Assembly (NCBI RefSeq): GCF_030013595.1
Contig: NZ_CP122768.1
Length of the DNA stretch: 64,000 nucleotides
Source: Escherichia coli
GTDB taxonomy: Bacteria; Pseudomonadota; Gammaproteobacteria; Enterobacterales; Enterobacteriaceae
Strand: one strand, 5' to 3'
The translations under genes were made by a program, and so were the position numbers. Below the pieces are notes generated by a model. It was given only the letters and a program-made list of their open reading frames with translations. It was not told where the DNA came from and searched no databases. Below are positions 10,650 through 21,839 of this stretch, piece by piece (positions within the stretch are counted from its first letter, which is position 1; the number at the start of each line of letters is the position of its first letter).

Positions 10650-11107
10650 TTATTTTCCTCGTCATGTTGCAATGAAAATTTGCGGTGAAAAATGTTAAGG
10701 CGGCGGAGTATACCATAAGCTTCGCTAAAAATAGCAGTGGTTGTTTTTTGAGCGTGATATCGGCAGTGCTATAAAATACGTTAATATAATGACCAATAAA
10801 TATTTTTATCATGAATGTTTTTTGCCCGTATTGTTCGGGTTAATTAATGTTACATATTCAGCGGGCTGATTTTCATTTTTGCTGAATAAAGTCAATTTTT
10901 GTCACATTTCATCGCAGGGCTTACAGTGAAACGATCCCGGAAGCCGTTGGTGACGGGCGTGACCATAACTGTGGACAATCGAATTTACAAAAACGAGAGA
11001 AAAATCGAATACCCACCATTTTTAACGTTTCAAAGTTGCAATAAAAACCGCTAATATACGAATGACTAACTATCAGTAGCGTTATCCCTATTTCTGGAGA
11101 TATTCCT

Positions 11108-11764
11108 TTGATCAACGTTCTACTTGTTGATGACCACGAACTGGTGCGCGCAGGGATACGACGCATTCTGGAAGATATAAAGGGTATAAAAGTCGTCGGT
11201 GAGGCATCGTGCGGTGAAGACGCCGTTAAGTGGTGCCGGGCAAATGCCGTTGACGTGGTGCTAATGGACATGAGTATGCCGGGCATTGGCGGTCTTGAGG
11301 CGACGCGTAAAATCGCGCGTTCCACAGCTGATGTCAAAATCATCATGCTTACCGTCCATACAGAAAACCCTTTACCAGCGAAAGTCATGCAGGCCGGTGC
11401 TGCGGGCTACCTCAGCAAAGGCGCGGCTCCGCAGGAAGTCGTGAGTGCGATCCGTTCTGTCTATTCAGGGCAGCGTTACATTGCTTCTGACATCGCTCAA
11501 CAAATGGCGTTAAGCCAGATCGAACCAGAAAAAACAGAAAGCCCATTTGCCAGTTTGTCTGAACGTGAATTGCAGATTATGCTGATGATCACCAAGGGCC
11601 AGAAGGTCAATGAGATCTCAGAACAGCTCAATCTCAGTCCGAAAACGGTGAACAGCTACCGCTATCGTATGTTCAGTAAACTAAACATTCATGGCGATGT
11701 TGAGCTGACTCACCTGGCAATTCGCCATGGTCTGTGTAATGCGGAGACATTATCAAGTCAGTGA
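11108..11764 (+). CDS. uvrY: Response regulator UvrY (BarA/UvrY two-component system)
   Basis: TTG start; [26 protein letters not shown]... receiver domain plus LuxR-type HTH. Confidence 0.9.
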
Positions 11765-13593
11765 GTGATCAGTTTGACGCAAAAGCGTTTTTAAAAACCG
11801 TAACCAGCCAGCCAGGCGTTTATCGCATGTATGATGCTGGTGGTACGGTTATCTATGTCGGCAAAGCGAAAGACCTGAAAAAACGGCTTTCCAGCTATTT
11901 CCGTAGCAACCTCGCTTCGCGCAAAACCGAAGCGCTGGTCGCCCAGATCCAGCAAATTGATGTAACGGTTACTCATACAGAAACCGAAGCGCTGTTGCTG
12001 GAACACAACTACATCAAACTCTATCAGCCGCGTTACAACGTTTTGCTACGCGATGATAAATCTTATCCTTTTATCTTCCTGAGTGGCGATACTCACCCGC
12101 GTCTGGCGATGCATCGTGGTGCGAAGCATGCCAAAGGTGAATATTTCGGCCCGTTCCCGAATGGCTATGCCGTACGTGAAACACTGGCGCTACTGCAAAA
12201 GATATTCCCCATTCGCCAGTGCGAAAATAGTGTTTATCGCAATCGCTCGCGTCCGTGTCTGCAATATCAGATAGGGCGCTGTCTGGGACCGTGCGTTGAA
12301 GGACTGGTGAGTGAAGAAGAATACGCTCAGCAGGTCGAGTATGTGCGCCTGTTTTTGTCTGGCAAAGATGATCAGGTGCTTACGCAACTCATTAGCCGTA
12401 TGGAAACTGCCAGCCAGAATCTGGAGTTTGAAGAAGCGGCACGTATTCGCGACCAAATTCAGGCGGTGCGACGCGTCACCGAAAAACAGTTTGTGTCCAA
12501 TACCGGCGACGACCTTGACGTTATTGGTGTGGCGTTCGATGCGGGCATGGCTTGTGTCCACGTATTGTTCATTCGTCAGGGTAAAGTGCTCGGCAGCCGC
12601 AGCTATTTCCCGAAAGTGCCTGGCGGTACGGAACTGAGCGAGGTGGTGGAAACCTTCGTAGGTCAGTTCTATTTACAAGGCAGCCAGATGCGCACCTTAC
12701 CGGGTGAGATCCTGCTCGATTTTAATCTTAGCGATAAAACGCTGCTCGCCGATTCCCTTTCAGAACTGGCGGGACGCAAGATTAATGTTCAAACTAAACC
12801 TCGCGGCGATCGGGCGCGTTATCTGAAACTCGCGCGCACCAATGCGGCGACGGCCTTAACCAGCAAACTTTCGCAGCAATCTACCGTTCACCAGCGACTG
12901 ACCGCACTTGCCAGCGTGTTGAAATTGCCGGAAGTGAAGCGGATGGAGTGCTTTGACATCAGCCATACCATGGGTGAACAAACCGTCGCTTCCTGTGTGG
13001 TGTTTGATGCTAACGGCCCGCTGCGTGCGGAGTATCGGCGCTATAACATTACTGGCATTACGCCGGGCGATGATTATGCGGCGATGAATCAGGTGCTGCG
13101 TCGGCGTTATGGTAAAGCCATCGACGACAGTAAGATCCCGGATGTGATCCTTATTGACGGCGGCAAAGGCCAGCTTGCGCAGGCGAAAAATGTCTTCGCC
13201 GAACTGGATGTCTCATGGGATAAAAATCATCCGCTGCTACTTGGCGTTGCCAAAGGAGCAGATAGGAAGGCTGGGCTGGAAACGCTGTTCTTTGAGCCGG
13301 AAGGTGAGGGATTCAGTTTGCCGCCAGATTCTCCCGCGCTGCATGTTATCCAGCATATTCGCGACGAATCACACGATCACGCGATTGGTGGGCACCGTAA
13401 AAAACGGGCGAAGGTCAAAAATACCAGTTCCCTGGAAACCATTGAAGGCGTCGGGCCAAAACGTCGGCAAATGTTGTTGAAATATATGGGCGGTTTGCAA
13501 GGTTTACGTAACGCCAGCGTTGAGGAAATTGCAAAAGTGCCGGGTATTTCGCAAGGTCTGGCAGAAAAGATCTTCTGGTCGTTGAAACATTGA
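11761..13593 (+). CDS. uvrC: Excinuclease ABC subunit C
   Basis: 610-aa ORF, GIY-YIG N-terminus ([25 protein letters not shown]), overlaps uvrY stop. Confidence 0.9.
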
Positions 13594-14782: not shown

Positions 14783-15826
14783 TCATTTTCTCTGGCCACC
14801 AACTACGGGCACTACTTTAACTTTTCGGTCATATGCTGCTGTCTGTCGTGGGTTCTTATGCCCGGAAATTGCTTGCTTCTCTTCCAGGCTGCCTTCCAGA
14901 TCAGAGATACCTTTTGCTTTCAGATCATGAAATGTGAAGTCTATTTGCAGATGAGGATATTTTTCCTGTGCTGCCGCTTTGACATCACGCCAACGAGAGT
15001 TAAAACCATCACGGGTGTACTTGCCTCCGGTAGTTTGATGAATCACAAACAGGCTACTGATTCCCGGTTTTAATGGCAGAGAACGAGCCAGAGCTATCGC
15101 TTTCTGCAGACGAGGCGACCAGGCTTTGATTTGCTTAACGCCGGTTTTTCCCTGACGAATGTAGATCCCGGAATCGAACAGCTGGTCTTTCTGTAATGAA
15201 AGTACATCACTCTGTCTGGCCACACATAAGTAGGCAATCTCCATTGCCACGCGAACAACATCAGGAGACACTTCATAAACGGCCTGATATTCTTCATCCG
15301 TAATATAACGTTCGCGTGCTGTCTCTTTAAACTGCTTAACTCCCTGACAAGGATTCCTCTGGACATAACCTCGTTCATAACCCCAACGGAATACCCTGGA
15401 CATAAAGCTTTTTTCCCTATTTGCCTGAGTTCGGCTTGATAAACCGCGTTGATCCATATAGCGCCGAATATGTTCAGGTTTGATTTTATCCGGGTCGATC
15501 TTCCCGAAGACAGGCAGAACTTTTCCGGAATATTTTGTGTAGTCTTTCCTGGTTTCGACTGCCAAATCCATAAAATCAGGGGAGGTCATGAATTGTTCCG
15601 CGAGCGCCTGAAAAGTATTTCTTTCTTTTTCGTCACCGACCGCTTTTTCATATGCCAGCCATACGGCTGATCGTGGCGCATCCAATGCGCACAGGCGTAT
15701 CGCTTTGTTATCTTTATTCCTGAATTCGTAGGCCGCTTTGCCCTGGTAAACACGAGGCGGCATCCAGTTATCTGCTGGGTTCTTTCTCTTTCCGGCCATT
15801 AAATATTGCTCCAAAATCAGGTTCAT
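14783..15826 (-). CDS. int: Prophage tyrosine integrase
   Basis: 347-aa ORF next to attL/tRNA, opposite orientation; C-terminal region (...HDLKAKGISDLEG...SGHKNPRQTAAYDRK) resembles tyrosine-recombinase catalytic region. Confidence 0.85.
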   Translation of the reverse strand: MNLILEQYLMAGKRKNPADNWMPPRVYQGKAAYEFRNKDNKAIRLCALDAPRSAVWLAYEKAVGDEKERNTFQALAEQFMTSPDFMDLAVETRKDYTKYSGKVLPVFGKIDPDKIKPEHIRRYMDQRGLSSRTQANREKSFMSRVFRWGYERGYVQRNPCQGVKQFKETARERYITDEEYQAVYEVSPDVVRVAMEIAYLCVARQSDVLSLQKDQLFDSGIYIRQGKTGVKQIKAWSPRLQKAIALARSLPLKPGISSLFVIHQTTGGKYTRDGFNSRWRDVKAAAQEKYPHLQIDFTFHDLKAKGISDLEGSLEEKQAISGHKNPRQTAAYDRKVKVVPVVGGQRK

Positions 15827-16031
15827 CTTCTTTTCGCGTCGTCACCTCCTGTAAATTGCGAAATTTTATTGGGTTCAAGAAATGGCCCCAGGTTGTTTTT
15901 GGGTGCCCGTCAGCCCTTTCCATGAAGAAAATTCCAGCCCGGCGAAGAGCCTCACATTGCTTTGATTTAAGTGGGCTTCCCGTCAGCTCGACCATTTCTT
16001 CTCTGGTGATTATGTCGTGATCGCTTTTCAT
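15768..16031 (-). CDS. Putative excisionase / small DNA-binding protein
   Basis: 87-aa ORF immediately upstream of int and overlapping its start, as for lambdoid xis; no diagnostic motif. Confidence 0.35.
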   Translation of the reverse strand: MKSDHDIITREEMVELTGSPLKSKQCEALRRAGIFFMERADGHPKTTWGHFLNPIKFRNLQEVTTRKEDEPDFGAIFNGRKEKEPSR

Positions 16032-16240
16032 GGTCTTTCCTCATTATGTAGCTTATTGCGTCATCTGCCTTCTGGCAGGCACGGGCAATATCAGACTCGG
16101 TCAAAGTCTGTTTCCTGACGCTGGCCGACAGTCGGCCAATTTTGATATCAAATGCGGAGAGCAGAGTTGCTCCCGGTTGCCATCGCAGCATTGTGATCCT
16201 CCGGTTACTGGTGAAACGCAATGCTAGCGATGGTGAGTTT

Positions 16241-16423
16241 TTATTTCTGATTAGGCGTAATCAGTTCTGGTGGGGGGAATGCCGATTTCTCCCGCGTGAC
16301 CTTAATGTTTTCTGGCAGGTGTAGCCCAAGTTCGCAGCGACTCCGTGCTTCAATAATGCCATTGGTACCATCGGCAAGTACCAGGTGAACCGCGTCACCA
16401 CGCTTTAATGTGAGTTTAAGCAT
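16241..16423 (-). CDS. Small early protein with CsrA-like sequence pattern
   Basis: 60 aa MLKLTLKRGDAV...GLHLPENIKVTREK; gapless alignment to CsrA (MLILTRRVGETL...GVNAPKEVSVHREE) conserves M1 L2 L4 T5 G9 G33 P37 V42 R44 E45. Confidence 0.3.
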   Translation of the reverse strand: MLKLTLKRGDAVHLVLADGTNGIIEARSRCELGLHLPENIKVTREKSAFPPPELITPNQK

Positions 16424-16992
16424 TAGCGTACCCTCAGCGAACGTTCGCCGCGTTCCAGATGTGCGCCTGGTACCGGGTTTAATAACTCGGCTGGTGGTGT
16501 TTCTCCACGCGCCAGTATTTCGGCGGCAACCGCCTCCGCAGATTCAATCACTTCTTTAATGGCTCGCTTGTTTGGTGTAATAACCGTTTCTACATCAACA
16601 AGTGACACGCCTTCATACTCATCCGGGATCTTATCTTTGCTATCGATAATTACCCGGATAGCCCCCTGTGCATCAGTAAATGTGTTTTTTGCGGTTTTTA
16701 GTTTATCCAGGCCAGCAGCTTGCAGGCAGGCGAGCATATGCTTCCGAATTGCTTTTTCCTTGCCTTCAAAGGACGTCTTACGGGTAGCCAGGCGAGACAT
16801 TTCTTCAGCGCAGGTACTGGCATTGCCCTGTAAATTACGGCAGATGACCATCATGGCGTCCAGTTTGTCTCCCAGTTCTCCTTCCATACCTTCAAGCGTG
16901 TCGGCGATCATCTCTGGCGTCAGTTCGTCGGAGGTTTCTAACAGGTCAATCAGACTGGCATATTCTTTTGCAATAGCGATAGCAGTGCTCAT
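16423..16992 (-). CDS. Phage recombination-module protein (Gp157-like, tentative)
   Basis: 189-aa acidic ORF directly downstream of the annealing-protein gene; family from memory. Confidence 0.4.
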   Translation of the reverse strand: MSTAIAIAKEYASLIDLLETSDELTPEMIADTLEGMEGELGDKLDAMMVICRNLQGNASTCAEEMSRLATRKTSFEGKEKAIRKHMLACLQAAGLDKLKTAKNTFTDAQGAIRVIIDSKDKIPDEYEGVSLVDVETVITPNKRAIKEVIESAEAVAAEILARGETPPAELLNPVPGAHLERGERSLRVR

Positions 16993-19214
16993 GCTGTTTG
17001 CTCCTGTGCTGCGGTGAGGGCGGTGAGGCGTTCGGTTTTGATTTCATTCAAACGGCGCAGGCGCGAACCAAGATAAGTTGAATACTCCTTATCACCTTTG
17101 GATTCTGCGGCCTTGCGGTGAACTTCTACTTCCCGCGCAATAAGGCCATAGACTTTATTAACTTCATTGGGGGTTACGGCTGCAGCCAGTGTTTTGGCAA
17201 CACCTGAGAGTCGTTCATCCAGTTCTTCACGCAGTCGGGTAGCATCCTCTGCTTTCTCGCTTGCCTTCTTAATACTGTATTCTGTATTCAGCTCGGCGGT
17301 GTAGGCACTATCGTTATGCATATCCATATAAACATCTGCCGCAAATCCCAGATGAGATAGTGCTTTGACGGTGGCATCAGTAAGAGACTTTTTGGAGGCC
17401 TCTTTTTCCATTACCAGTGCCCCTTTGTTATTTTTTGATATGTAATCCGTGTGGCCATATGACGGAATAAATCCTTTCACTCCGTTCCAGATGTACCAGA
17501 GATCTATCCGGATGGTGTGTACTGACAGGCAGAACAGGGAACCGTCAGCATCCCTGACAGGTTTTTGTCCAATAATTTTCCCTGTCTGATCCTGTATAGG
17601 TTCAAGTAATGGCACACCGCGATCCACTCGCTCCTCCTTGATTTCAACTCCCCAACCAATGCCTTCCATTCCCAGCACTTCAGTCGCACGCATCAAAATA
17701 TATTGTGCGCGTATGGAGTGCAGTCCTGCACCGTAATCATTATGTGTGACATACGCAGGATCGGTCCGCTGAACGCGATTCCAGATAGCCAAATTTGCTT
17801 TGCTCTGGTCATCATTCATTGCTGACAGATAATGCTCCATGCGAATTGATGCAGTTTTTTCCTCGGCATGGGGCGGCTCAACCAGCGCGTCAACGTTCTG
17901 CACCAGGTCTTTTACCTGCTCGCTAAGTTTTTCTTGTGGAGGAGTCTCTTCTGCCGGGGTAATAGCTGCAGGTTCCCTCTGTGATACGGCGTTATTTTCA
18001 GGTACGTCATACACATGGCGAGGCGTGACAAACTGCTCACGCAACTGCTGCAAACTACGTTCTCCAGCATTTGCTGCTTCGCTTTTTTCGCCCTGATTTG
18101 AGGGTGTTTCTGACATCATTCCATCAATTGAGAATCGCCCGCCGCCGTGGTTGGTGACTTTTACATCATCCTTTGGTGCTGTTTCCTTTGGCTTCTCTTC
18201 AACAGCATTTGCATCACGCTGCCCGTTAGCTTGCAGCCAGTTGTCGATGTGACTGCGCAGGGATTGCGGGAAGTGGTACGTGTCTTTTGCGGGGGCGCTC
18301 TGAATAACACCGAATACTGATGCGCGGTCATAGGCAAGGATCTGATCCGTTGTGCGCAAGGCCATTGACCAGCGTTTAAAATCCTCCCGATCCTGGCTGA
18401 TTATTTCGTCTGCCGCTTTCAGGACGCTGGGGGTGATTTTTTCCGGGCCAACGGGTAACAGGGCGCAGGCAATTTCACGATCCAGTGTGGCGTGAGTCTG
18501 TTGGTAAGGACGTGCGGATGCTGTTTCTGGTTTTACCTCCGGCAGCATTTCATCGCGTTTACCGGGATTCTCTACCCATTTTTTTATAAATTTGGAGATA
18601 GTCCAACTGGTCGGGTTTTGTTCCTGGGTATCGCAACTTGCCAAAATTGCATGTACCAGATTATTCAATCCAGCAATATGCATGTACTCGATGGGCTTAC
18701 ACGCCACCATGGCATCAAGAACGATGCGGTTAAACGCGTCAACCTCATCCTCACTGTCAGTATCACTGTTGTCGAGCATCTCCAGGTATTCACGCGTCTG
18801 CGCAAGCAATTCACTGTCGACTTCGTTGGCGTCGTGGCTGAACAGCAGGACGGCGGCGAAGCGTTCACGAGCCGGCAGTTTCATCAGGTCGTTAACCTGT
18901 GCGATATCTGCTGAACCGCTATCTGAATCAGCGGGGGTGTTAACTACCCATTTTTCGCCATCAAAACTGTGTTCTGTGGCAAACGTCTCATCAAACTCAC
19001 CGACGCCAGGGCGCGGTTGGCCCGGGGCATCTTCCCAGATTTTAGGTTTGAAATAGTTGTCGCCGTGGTCAGGGTAGGCTTCCCACAATTTGCCGATGAT
19101 GATGTTCTCGGCAACTTTTTTGTTAGGGGCGTCGATGGCGATGGCCAGCGCCGGGATCGCGCCGTTTTTGAGCGCGCCTTTTTTCGCTTCTAACAAGCCG
19201 TTAAAGATGGTCAT
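16989..19214 (-). CDS. Large early protein with C-terminal Erf/Rad52-type single-strand annealing domain (tentative)
   Basis: 741-aa ORF, RBS GAGGAAAGACCA before ATG; C-terminal ...KEASKKSLTDATVKALSHLGFAADVY resembles the Erf signature; N-terminal ~450 aa acidic, unrecognised. Confidence 0.5.
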   Translation of the reverse strand: MTIFNGLLEAKKGALKNGAIPALAIAIDAPNKKVAENIIIGKLWEAYPDHGDNYFKPKIWEDAPGQPRPGVGEFDETFATEHSFDGEKWVVNTPADSDSGSADIAQVNDLMKLPARERFAAVLLFSHDANEVDSELLAQTREYLEMLDNSDTDSEDEVDAFNRIVLDAMVACKPIEYMHIAGLNNLVHAILASCDTQEQNPTSWTISKFIKKWVENPGKRDEMLPEVKPETASARPYQQTHATLDREIACALLPVGPEKITPSVLKAADEIISQDREDFKRWSMALRTTDQILAYDRASVFGVIQSAPAKDTYHFPQSLRSHIDNWLQANGQRDANAVEEKPKETAPKDDVKVTNHGGGRFSIDGMMSETPSNQGEKSEAANAGERSLQQLREQFVTPRHVYDVPENNAVSQREPAAITPAEETPPQEKLSEQVKDLVQNVDALVEPPHAEEKTASIRMEHYLSAMNDDQSKANLAIWNRVQRTDPAYVTHNDYGAGLHSIRAQYILMRATEVLGMEGIGWGVEIKEERVDRGVPLLEPIQDQTGKIIGQKPVRDADGSLFCLSVHTIRIDLWYIWNGVKGFIPSYGHTDYISKNNKGALVMEKEASKKSLTDATVKALSHLGFAADVYMDMHNDSAYTAELNTEYSIKKASEKAEDATRLREELDERLSGVAKTLAAAVTPNEVNKVYGLIAREVEVHRKAAESKGDKEYSTYLGSRLRRLNEIKTERLTALTAAQEQTA

Positions 19215-20561: not shown

Positions 20562-20975
20562 CTATTTTGTCTGGTTTTTGGCTTCAAGTAGTTCTTTTAG
20601 CAGTAGATCGAAGTGCTCTCTTTTTTCTTTTAGCTCATTGATTAATTTATTTTTTTCGCTCTCAGGCAGTCCTCTGAATAGTTGCAGTAGAGCCTGTTCT
20701 TGCGGGGTTAGTTCTTGATTGTAATTACCCGGGTGTAGCGTGGATTCATCCAAATATTCACCTTCATTCATGAAGAAAAAATGAACAGGGTATCCGGTCA
20801 CTTTTGCTAGCTTGTCTAATTTATCTTTTCTTGGAGTTACCCCATTACACCATGCCTGAACTGATTGAGCCGTAACCCCAATATGGCGAGCTAACTCAGA
20901 TTGAGACCAGCCTAAGTCTTTTAGAATCCGTTGTAGTCGGCTAGCAAAAGCCATGTTTTTCGTTTTTGTGTTCAT
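20562..20975 (-). CDS. Prophage repressor (CI/RacR-like, XRE-family HTH)
   Basis: HTH LGWSQSELARHIGVTAQSVQAWCNG; divergent from cro-like gene; exact start uncertain (track ORF extends to 20990 with TTG). Confidence 0.6.
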   Translation of the reverse strand: MNTKTKNMAFASRLQRILKDLGWSQSELARHIGVTAQSVQAWCNGVTPRKDKLDKLAKVTGYPVHFFFMNEGEYLDESTLHPGNYNQELTPQEQALLQLFRGLPESEKNKLINELKEKREHFDLLLKELLEAKNQTK

Positions 20976-21009
20976 ACCGTAAGGATACAAGGTTTAATTG
21001 TAGGGAGCA

Positions 21010-21048
21010 TTGCAAATATAATTTGTAATTACAGTTATGATTTGTAAT
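21010..21048. promoter_or_regulatory. Putative right operator region (OR-like) between repressor and cro-like gene
   Basis: ttgcaaatataatttgtaa palindrome plus a second atttgtaat half-site. Confidence 0.45.
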
Positions 21049-21073
21049 GATGGCGCGGACACAAGGAGTCCAT

Positions 21074-21304
21074 ATGGATAAACAACTGCAAGACAAAATT
21101 CTTTCCGTAATGAGTCAATCCGAGTTAGGGCGGCGATTAGGGAAAAAACCACAAACGGTAAGCCTCTGGTTCAAAGGAAGGGTTCCCGGTGAAGAGGTTT
21201 TGCGCACATCTGAAGCTCTTGAATGGCGCGTGACCCCCCATGATCTTAGACCGGATCTTTACCCAAACCCAGATGACAGCTTGCCTAAAACGAAAGCAGC
21301 TTAA
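21074..21304 (+). CDS. Cro/YdaS-like HTH regulator
   Basis: AAGGAG RBS before MDKQLQDKIL...; HTH SQSELGRRLGKKPQTVSLWFKG; divergent from repressor. Confidence 0.55.
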   Translation: MDKQLQDKILSVMSQSELGRRLGKKPQTVSLWFKGRVPGEEVLRTSEALEWRVTPHDLRPDLYPNPDDSLPKTKAA

Positions 21305-21362
21305 CTGTTGGTGAGCCCCAAATCTGATTAAGCGTAATCAATTTTTAGCGACAGGAGACGCT

Positions 21363-21839
21363 ATGGAAAACCAAGAGGAATTACAAAAAGAGATTTTGAC
21401 CTGGGCGGCAAGGGCAGGGCAGGAACTCGTCACGATTGAAATCTGCCGGGCCTGGTTCAGTCAGGGACGCAATGATGAGTTGAGACTACATGAATTTGAG
21501 GACGCGGACGGCAATGTGGACTGGAGAGCCATCAACAACAATCGGCAGAAAATCTTTCGCTGGTTACGTGGCGAGACAACGGCGGCGCGCCGAAAAACTC
21601 AGGTGCTGGCCAGTGTGATGAAAGCCGTGCTACCCGCAGAACGGCGGGCGCGTCTGGAGTCGCCGGGCGATCCCGTTTTGCTGGCAACGCTGGCGGCAAA
21701 AGAAGGGGTGGAAGCGATTAACGCTGTACATCTCCACTTCGCGCCAGAGATAACTATTCAGGAAATTGACGAAGCAATAGCGGCGCTGGTAGCGACGCGA
21801 GGGGCAGTGATAAGCACTGCGCAAGGCCATCATGCATGA
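21363..21839 (+). CDS. YdaT-like / CII-like early regulator
   Basis: 158 aa; ...NRQKIFRWLRGET... resembles Rac YdaT as I recall; position after cro. Confidence 0.45.
   Translation: MENQEELQKEILTWAARAGQELVTIEICRAWFSQGRNDELRLHEFEDADGNVDWRAINNNRQKIFRWLRGETTAARRKTQVLASVMKAVLPAERRARLESPGDPVLLATLAAKEGVEAINAVHLHFAPEITIQEIDEAIAALVATRGAVISTAQGHHA

Follow-up and report, generated by a model that had tools for sequence, protein, structure and literature searches.

A small early-left protein of Enterobacterales prophages as a possible free-standing relative of the CsrA and YqeH β-sandwich, with a predicted YdaT operator in its gene

Introduction

Does the early region of a lambdoid prophage of Escherichia coli encode a small relative of the RNA-binding regulator CsrA, and if so, is that relative a CsrA? 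The question is raised by a 60-residue open reading frame (ORF), here called ORF60, located at positions 16241-16423 (minus strand, ATG start) of a 64,000-nucleotide (nt) stretch of E. coli DNA (contig NZ_CP122768.1 of RefSeq assembly GCF_030013595.1; hereafter the window). A first-pass annotation of the window, made without database searches, had noticed a gapless CsrA-like residue pattern in ORF60 and suggested a phage-borne RNA-binding regulator encoded in an early-left operon. The coordinates and sequence that it quoted are exact, the translation in the ORF listing of the window being MLKLTLKRGDAVHLVLADGTNGIIEARSRCELGLHLPENIKVTREKSAFPPPELITPNQK.

The CsrA dimer and YqeH's C-terminal domain were described by Andreeva and Murzin as very similar atypical β-sandwiches related by segment swapping, CsrA being a dimer of interlocked subunits and YqeH containing two compact repeats in one chain (PMC2954204). 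The YqeH domain, termed a 'peptide/nucleotide-recognition' domain, is needed for 30S binding and does not shift RNA when alone (PMC2741578), while for NOA1 both RNA binding and a guiding role in the folding of rRNA are described (PMC9892005). The analysis presented here leads to a tentative answer, to which we give somewhat less than even weight: as a dimer, ORF60 residues 1-47 would form the β-sandwich common to CsrA and YqeH/NOA1, and would bind single-stranded nucleic acid, most likely RNA. It also identifies the most conserved part of the protein, its C-terminal motif, as mostly a DNA-level element.

ORF60 is a conserved gene

ORF60 matches the phage protein family phrog_2482 over its full length (hidden Markov model (HMM) E 5.4e-35), its residues 1-60 covering positions 1-61 of the 61-position model, but this family has no annotated function, and membership therefore tells nothing on mechanism. 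Homologues form about 75 clusters of 56-61 residues, every one of them a 'hypothetical protein' without a Pfam domain, and all hosts given by name belong to the Enterobacterales (Escherichia, Salmonella, Klebsiella, Enterobacter, Citrobacter, Serratia, Pectobacterium, Brenneria, Sodalis and others). Phage homologues include gp05 of Pectobacterium phage ZF40 (43% identity) and a protein (67% identity) of vB_SmeS_BUCT708, a phage record whose name refers to Stenotrophomonas. Among complete E. coli genomes, the prophage region with ORF60 is present in 467 of 5,426 (~9%).

The gene is preceded by a Shine-Dalgarno (SD) sequence, GAGGG, read directly from the sequence (16431-16435, minus strand, 7 nt 5' of the ATG), and its ATG (16423-16421) overlaps the stop codon TAA (16425-16423) of the preceding Gp157 gene as TAATG. 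In seven DNA sequences of the family, the proportion of synonymous differences (pS) is 0.65-0.89, synonymous sites being saturated, and the proportion of non-synonymous differences (pN) is 0.22-0.49, with ratios of non-synonymous to synonymous substitution rates (dN/dS) of 0.10-0.34 where computable. ORF60 is a genuine gene under purifying selection. One metagenome protein, P0030, is a frameshifted ORF60 that enters an overlapping 46-residue alternative-frame ORF (16261-16401, minus strand) and then returns, probably through a sequencing or assembly error.

Sequence resemblance to CsrA

Aligned N-terminus to N-terminus without gaps, ORF60 and E. coli CsrA (the query being confirmed identical to PDB 1y00) share 10 identities in the first 46 positions, namely M1, L2, L4, T5, G9, G33, P37, V42, R44 and E45. 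The gapless alignment of the first-pass annotation is thus real, with all ten of its identities reproduced. The BLOSUM62 score in this fixed register is 32, compared with -32.9 +/- 15.0 in 200,000 composition-preserving shuffles (z 4.3, p ~6.5e-5), and the corresponding scores against the Bacillus and Geobacillus CsrA proteins are 37-38 (z 4.6-4.8). By these figures, the match is above chance for a register specified in advance. Because CsrA was chosen after the sequence had been seen, the Pfam figure is a fairer statistic than the shuffle test. In the Pfam search, the sole match of ORF60 was to PF02599, the CsrA family, with residues 1-45 falling on model positions 1-45 at E 0.1. When 50 family members were scanned singly, CsrA was also the Pfam family matched by the largest number of them.

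These results would suit a functional CsrA analogue, a dimer binding GGA via L2/L4 and R44 that would rival or imitate the CsrA of the host, either on host mRNAs or on CsrB/CsrC, and so act as a host-takeover factor. CsrA binds GGA motifs via strands 1 and 5 contributed by different subunits, and L2, L4 and R44, all included in the gapless match, are key CsrA RNA-binding residues. The same reading draws on PF02599 as the sole Pfam match, on the retention of R44 in 40 and of an acidic residue 10 in 46 of the 50 family members, on the occurrence of true CsrA genes in phages (88 records), and on the GGA-containing SD sequences that lie in hairpin loops in the genes 3' of both YdaT-boxes (see below).

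A series of results weighs against such a reading, and partly against any relationship to CsrA. The PF02599 score of ORF60 is 13 bits, below the curated gathering cut-off of 27 bits. In the single scans PF02599 was matched by 12 of the 50 members at E ≤ 10 (best E 9.1e-4), and the SH3-type family SH3_2 (PF07653) by six, with a best E of 6.2e-4 that is as good as that for CsrA; the most divergent members, including ZF40 gp05, matched neither of the two. Searches of the PDB sequences by phmmer and with the family profile returned no CsrA at E ≤ 10. An exhaustive search of 1.84 billion representative proteins (a nameless library) with the family profile at E ≤ 1e-3 gave 17 matches; most were short proteins of family size, a few were long and multi-stretch, and none was a CsrA-sized protein outside the family. 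Narrow CsrA and YqeH HMMs were run with all 806 ORFs of the window as decoys, and ORF60 ranked fourth with the CsrA model at 3 bits, not separated from the other 805. In addition, a word-index search of 5.8 billion proteins with a wider profile at E ≤ 10 recovered family members only, none carrying PF02599 or any other Pfam domain.

The pattern of conservation is similarly divided. Within the family (n = 50), M1 is present in 50 members, G9 and P37 in 49 each, L2 in 48, V, I or L at position 42 in 47, the acidic residue 10 in 46, R44 in 40, E45 in 34, T or S at position 5 in 30, L4 in 17 (40 when M and I are counted with L) and G33 in 13. Conservation of the aligned residues across homologues, the lack of which the first-pass annotation had named as refuting its reading, is thus uneven: high for M1, L2, G9 and P37, lower for R44 and low for L4 and G33. 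R44 is absent from 10 of the 50 members, and is replaced by L in a divergent type of homologue represented by locus L020, which also counts against a relationship to CsrA. In a 13-sequence CsrA alignment (see below), R6, A8, R44 and E46 are present in all sequences and L4 in 12; in the ORF60 family, the invariant RNA-binding residues of CsrA are not retained at position 6, which is mostly L, or at position 46, which is mostly K. By sequence statistics ORF60 is not a CsrA, family membership not being reached, and we consider a functional CsrA analogue improbable.

Profile-profile comparison with CsrA and YqeH

More distant kinship was examined by comparing alignments with hhalign. A search for CsrA homologues yielded, among the best 120 matches, sequences nearly all more than 90% identical to the query, and because these gave little diversity, seven CsrA sequences were added. 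The resulting alignment of 13 sequences comprises four PDB-verified sequences, two proteins from databases and the seven added ones, which score 74-98 bits each on PF02599; the B. subtilis CsrA sequence was confirmed exact against PDB 1t3o.

The ORF60 family aligned with this CsrA set at P 0.008-0.009 and with a narrower CsrA alignment at P 0.027. Against YqeH, P was 0.028-0.038 for repeat 1 and 0.10-0.12 for repeat 2, at 11-17% sequence identity. As a calibration, CsrA against YqeH repeat 1, whose kinship is accepted on structural grounds, gave P 0.007-0.017. The values for ORF60 against CsrA are marginal, and at the same level as those of this accepted pair. All three comparisons share one segment and register, encompassing β4, P37, β5 and R44, and the positions conserved in both the ORF60 and CsrA families are M1, L2, the acidic residue 10, P37 and R44. 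A point against the relationship is that hhalign gives two different N-terminal registers for the ORF60 family. Another RNA-binding protein, the trp RNA-binding attenuation protein TRAP (MtrB), which is a ring oligomer of about 11 subunits binding GAG/UAG repeats, was also compared, and the ORF60 score was at noise level.

Predicted structure

The AlphaFold2 model of the ORF60 monomer, built from a 20-sequence alignment, contains four strands with a predicted local distance difference test score (pLDDT) of 78. A Foldseek search of the PDB with this model returned nothing below E = 1, a search that is uninformative because the monomer model is not compact. Since CsrA is an obligate intertwined dimer, two linked copies of ORF60 were modelled, joined by (GGGGS)5, and the same construct was built for 27 homologues in the underlying alignment. 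In the linked model, strands are predicted in both halves at residues 2-6, 11-15, 21-26, 30-35 and 41-45, with strand 5 seen in the dimer model alone and not in the monomer. The core pLDDT is ~89 and the predicted template modelling score (pTM) is 0.65, with linker and tails disordered; these values come from one model only, that of an artificial fusion, built on a shallow alignment. The five predicted strands lie at about the positions of those of CsrA, which are found at roughly 2-5, 11-14, 18-23, 30-35 and 40-44.

The linked model is predicted to adopt the two-repeat β-sandwich of the YqeH/NOA1 C-terminal domain. Its topology appears to be YqeH-like, and the interlocked form typical of CsrA is not demonstrable from it. 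Neither the monomer nor the dimer model contains a C-terminal helix of at least 4 residues, pLDDT being below 70 after residue 45. The protein is thus best divided into a predicted five-strand core (residues 1-47) and a low-confidence tail (48-60). The structural check proposed with the original observation, prediction of a CsrA dimer fold, accordingly gave a mixed outcome: a five-strand dimer is predicted, but it lacks the C-terminal helix and appears to have the YqeH-type topology. A CsrA-related fold for ORF60 is likely.

The resemblance could instead be coincidental, ORF60 being an unrelated small all-β protein (e.g. an SH3-like barrel) and the dimer model a fusion artefact. All of the sequence statistics are sub-threshold, SH3_2 competes with CsrA among the Pfam matches, and the alternating patterns of short β-rich proteins inflate z-scores based on shuffling; moreover, the monomer model matches nothing in the PDB, and the dimer model comes from a shallow alignment. 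Set beside this are the shared segment and register in the profile comparisons and the agreement of the predicted strands with those of CsrA, and we judge coincidence to be unlikely. As for the specific candidate, ORF60 could be placed among SH3-type domains (PF07653 SH3_2) neither by sequence nor by fold.

Comparison with known systems

The preferred reading, a sandwich common to CsrA and YqeH/NOA1, places ORF60 between several known systems. With CsrA/RsmA (PF02599; PDB 1y00, 1vpz, 2bti, 2jpp) it shares a length of about 60 residues, M1-L2, the acidic residue 10, P37, a V-x-V/I-x-R44 strand and E45; following PMC2954204, the two also have their sandwich architecture in common, and CsrA too occurs in phages. 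It differs in lacking R6, A36 and E46, in that L4 and R44 are not invariant, in the sub-threshold Pfam score and the lack of a reciprocal match, and in a model that has no C-terminal helix and apparently a YqeH-type instead of an interlocked topology. As regards the peptide/nucleotide-recognition domain of YqeH/NOA1 (PDB 3ec1, 3h2y, 8csp chain 9), YqeH has two non-identical repeats within a single polypeptide that also includes a circularly permuted GTPase and a zinc finger, whereas ORF60 is a free-standing protein of 60 residues which would need to homodimerise, and its gene block contains no GTPase gene.

A third comparison is with the evolutionary intermediate of Andreeva and Murzin, which ORF60 resembles in its CsrA-like length, its weakly CsrA-like sequence and its predicted homodimer of YqeH-type topology. 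That intermediate, a CsrA-like dimer whose compact subunits lie side by side, was postulated and is not a described family, and the likeness of ORF60 to it depends on one linker-fused AlphaFold2 model. The further proposal, that the ORF60 family is the free-standing homodimeric CsrA/YqeH sandwich put forward in 2010 as a 'hypothetical evolutionary link', surviving in Enterobacterales temperate phages as a small RNA-binding regulator of phage early transcripts, seems to us doubtful.

Proposed function

Because both of its structural relatives work on RNA, we infer that ORF60 is a dimeric binder of single-stranded nucleic acid, and its possible ligands and biological role are suggested on the same basis. 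In the proposed mechanism, two copies, each contributing five short β-strands from residues 1-47, would pack into a sandwich of the CsrA/YqeH type. The dimer would then bind single-stranded nucleic acid at its edges, which strand 1 (M1-L2-x-hydrophobic) and strand 5 (V-x-I-x-R44) make up. Made together with Gp157 from the early-left transcript, ORF60 may have phage early transcripts or recombination intermediates as its targets. It would not duplicate the Csr regulator of the host, and it could differ from CsrA in specificity. The original suggestion of a CsrA-like RNA-binding regulator is therefore retained as far as a CsrA-related fold is likely, and is unsupported as regards family membership (13 against 27 bits, hhalign P ~0.01), with RNA binding an expectation from the structural relatives.

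A predicted YdaT operator in the 3' end of the gene

The most conserved part of the ORF60 family lies outside the predicted core, in the C-terminal motif L54-I55-x-x-N58-Q59-K60. At the DNA level, codons 54-59 carry a perfect inverted repeat, CTGATTA-N4-TAATCAG (16247-16264), of the general form (C/T)TGATT-N6-AATCA(G/A), here called YdaT-box 1. In 14 sequences, the codons of the motif are frozen: I55 is ATT in 14/14, N58 is AAT in 14/14, Q59 is CAG in 12/13 and K60 is AAA in 12/12. The other invariant residues use 2-5 codons each (3-5 each for L2, G9, G19, R29 and P37) in the same sequences, in which synonymous sites are otherwise saturated. Allowing up to 2 mismatches, three matches to the palindrome were found against 0.17 expected by chance. 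One of them, YdaT-box 2 (CTGATTAAGCGTAATCAA, 21324-21341), lies between ydaS/cro (21047-21304) and ydaT (21363-21839), 5.1 kb from box 1; relatives have it in the corresponding position, and the two boxes change together by phage lineage.

YdaT is the CII equivalent of these phages, and PMC9986795 gives its operator as 5'-TTGATT-N6-AATCAA-3'. For the Rac prophage, PMC11879457 states that the YdaT-box activates a reverse, PRE-like promoter 29-fold. The authors of the CP-933P paper describe a YdaT tetramer able to hold two operators, yet one strong site in that cryptic prophage; the prophage family described here has two.

A natural experiment is provided by the L020-type homologue, which has 56 residues and an unrelated tail without LIxxNQK. 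In this group the box is kept under an unrelated 56-residue hydrophobic ORF, and because the box persists there while the homologue has lost the tail, the tail of ORF60 appears to be conserved on account of the operator. LIxxNQK is thus, from sequence comparison, mostly a DNA-level element, a predicted YdaT operator and not a protein motif, and the conserved protein body is residues 1-47. A role of LIxxNQK as a docking peptide or degron was set aside in view of the invariant synonymous sites, the recurrence of the palindrome after ydaS and the loss of the tail in L020. The palindrome was also considered as an RNA hairpin, an intrinsic terminator, a nut/boxB-like element, an IHF site or a LexA box, and each was dropped from the sequence: its stems are sequence-conserved and its loops are not, the transcribed strand lacks a U-tract at site 1, and the spacing does not fit LexA.

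Box 2 and a T-run are followed by a small plus-strand hairpin, TAGCG-ACAGGAGA-CGCTA (21346-21365), whose loop carries the ydaT SD sequence and whose final base is the A of the ydaT ATG. Six of the contexts examined keep this hairpin (L001, L004 and L006-L009). The layout of box, hairpin with SD sequence in the loop and start codon is common to both YdaT-boxes.

A predicted leftward promoter and RNA hairpin downstream of box 1

Exactly 20 nt 3' of YdaT-box 1 is a -10-like hexamer, TAGCAT (16221-16226, minus strand), and TAnnnT, usually TAGCAT, is found at this spacing in 25 of 27 distinct contexts. This arrangement, with the box centred at about -41.5, suggests a YdaT-dependent leftward promoter, with a predicted transcription start at about 16213-16215, directed toward a 74-residue ORF, xis and int, which would be an analogue of the lambda CII-dependent promoter pI. 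A term search within the YdaT papers PMC9986795 and PMC11879457 found, in the text that it covered, no description of a leftward YdaT-dependent promoter for integration genes.

The first gene downstream of the predicted promoter (15967-16191, minus strand; phrog_27062) encodes a 74-residue protein with the N-terminus MLRWQPG, conserved as M-x-x-W-Q/K-P-G. It has a strong SD sequence (GGAGGA), overlaps the xis start and gave no Pfam match; it is unannotated in the RefSeq relative NZ_CP098214 and is called at this place in L006, L008, L010, L012, L014 and L016. Its start region is predicted to fold into an RNA hairpin, H2 (16181-16233, minus strand), whose 5' arm pairs with the AUG and codons 2-4 and whose loop holds the SD sequence (16196-16201). 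The fold is shared by all 13 relatives, with compensatory changes in 10 of its 18 pairs; the covariation score is 0.274, compared with 0.134 +/- 0.015 in shuffled alignments (reached in 0/500) and at most 0.115 with the partners slid. The folding energy of the window sequence is -31.7 kcal/mol (z -4.78). An Rfam search gave no family over H2 or over a further hairpin, H1, its lone match (c4-a1b1, E 0.61) being noise.

The TAGCAT stretch is part of the 5' arm region of H2. In a transcript that reads through ORF60, H2 would hide the start codon of the 74-residue gene, while a transcript begun at the predicted promoter would be without the 5' arm, so that the start codon would be open. Translation of this gene may thus be promoter-dependent, a hypothesis suggested by the overlap of the two elements.

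Prophage context

The window holds a lambdoid prophage of the YdaS/YdaT type at tRNA-Leu, downstream of uvrC-pgsA-tRNA(Gly, Cys, Leu). Its immunity region comprises a cI-like repressor (20562-20990), YdaS/Cro (21047-21304) and YdaT (21363-21839). Leftward from it, the order is a 106-residue protein (phrog_2479), a 741-residue YdfE-like protein, Gp157, ORF60, the 74-residue gene, a DUF4224 excisionase and the integrase. The YdfE-like 'exonuclease' (16989-19214, minus strand; phrog_2489) is the first large gene of a conserved block and is named from YdfE_N/YdfE_C matches on its homologues, the 741-residue protein itself giving 0 matches in the Pfam copy used and in the PDB sequences. Its C-terminal third has the look of a Rad52/Sak-type annealase motif, a likeness that the empty PDB sequence search did not confirm. 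Gp157 (16423-16992, minus strand; 189 residues) belongs to the Siphovirus Gp157 family (PF05565, E 2.5e-28; phrog_253, 'Mu Gam-like end protection'). The excisionase-like DUF4224 protein (15768-16031, minus strand) is identified by domain and PHROG matches, and the tyrosine integrase (14783-15826, minus strand) lies beside tRNA-Leu, with the attachment site downstream of uvrC-pgsA-tRNA Gly/Cys/Leu.

The YdfE-like/Gp157/ORF60 block is the same in all 14 sequence-distinct contexts read, from genomes, metagenomes and phages, and the gap between Gp157 and ORF60 is at most 41 nt in most of the contexts examined (80 nt in L013). In L020 (IMG/VR contig 2857232910_000003, 5653-6034) and similar loci, an extra 59-residue ORF lies between Gp157 and the ORF60 homologue. 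The xis and int genes adjoining the block vary in family (DUF4224, Exc, HTH_17), and because the block is fixed while these differ, ORF60 belongs with Gp157 and not with the integration module. It is the last gene of the conserved YdfE-like/Gp157 block in the early-left operon of an Enterobacterales lambdoid prophage family, and the first-pass placement in such an operon was right, gene order and synteny both agreeing with it.

This linkage bears on another explanation, in which ORF60 is a protein-binding accessory of a Gp157/YdfE-like DNA-end or recombination module and its sandwich holds a partner peptide instead of nucleic acid. It accords with the finding that every context read has ORF60 strictly linked and translationally coupled to Gp157, next to xis/int modules that are swapped, and with the description of the YqeH domain as one of peptide/nucleotide recognition that alone does not shift RNA (PMC2741578). 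The adjacent numbers of phrog_2479, phrog_2482 and phrog_2489 would mean similar family sizes if PHROG numbering follows family size, which is likewise consistent with co-occurrence. Evidence for a partner interaction, however, consists of linkage, both Gp157 and the YdfE-like protein have functions assigned at annotation level, and the sole docking-peptide-like feature of ORF60, the C-terminal LIxxNQK, is explained by the YdaT-box. A role as an accessory subunit seems to us a minority prospect, on a par with coincidental resemblance to CsrA.

The prophage site is just downstream of uvrY-uvrC-pgsA (~11100-11765, by mapping from L001 2410-3066; 14300-14700). The response regulator UvrY turns on the CsrB and CsrC RNAs. 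The proximity looks coincidental, because the neighbourhood is set by the tRNA attachment site.

Significance

A phage-encoded CsrA would not in itself be new, because 88 phage records already carry annotations of true CsrA homologues, ORF60 not being among them. What would be new, on model-based grounds that leave the claim tentative, is to assign phrog_2482 to the CsrA/YqeH sandwich, where it may represent the free-standing intermediate that has been postulated. The C-terminal motif has implications of its own: the top 'protein motif' of the family is a predicted operator overlapping the reading frame, which calls for caution in motif-based inference on small phage proteins, and box 1 marks what is probably a CII-like (YdaT) point of control over the integration genes. 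If the structural assignment is true, a family lacking an assigned function, carried by ~9% of complete E. coli genomes and by phages including ZF40, would gain a fold and a testable activity, and it would offer a living example of the intermediate through which segment swapping is proposed to connect CsrA with the YqeH/NOA1 domain, both of them RNA-associated folds.
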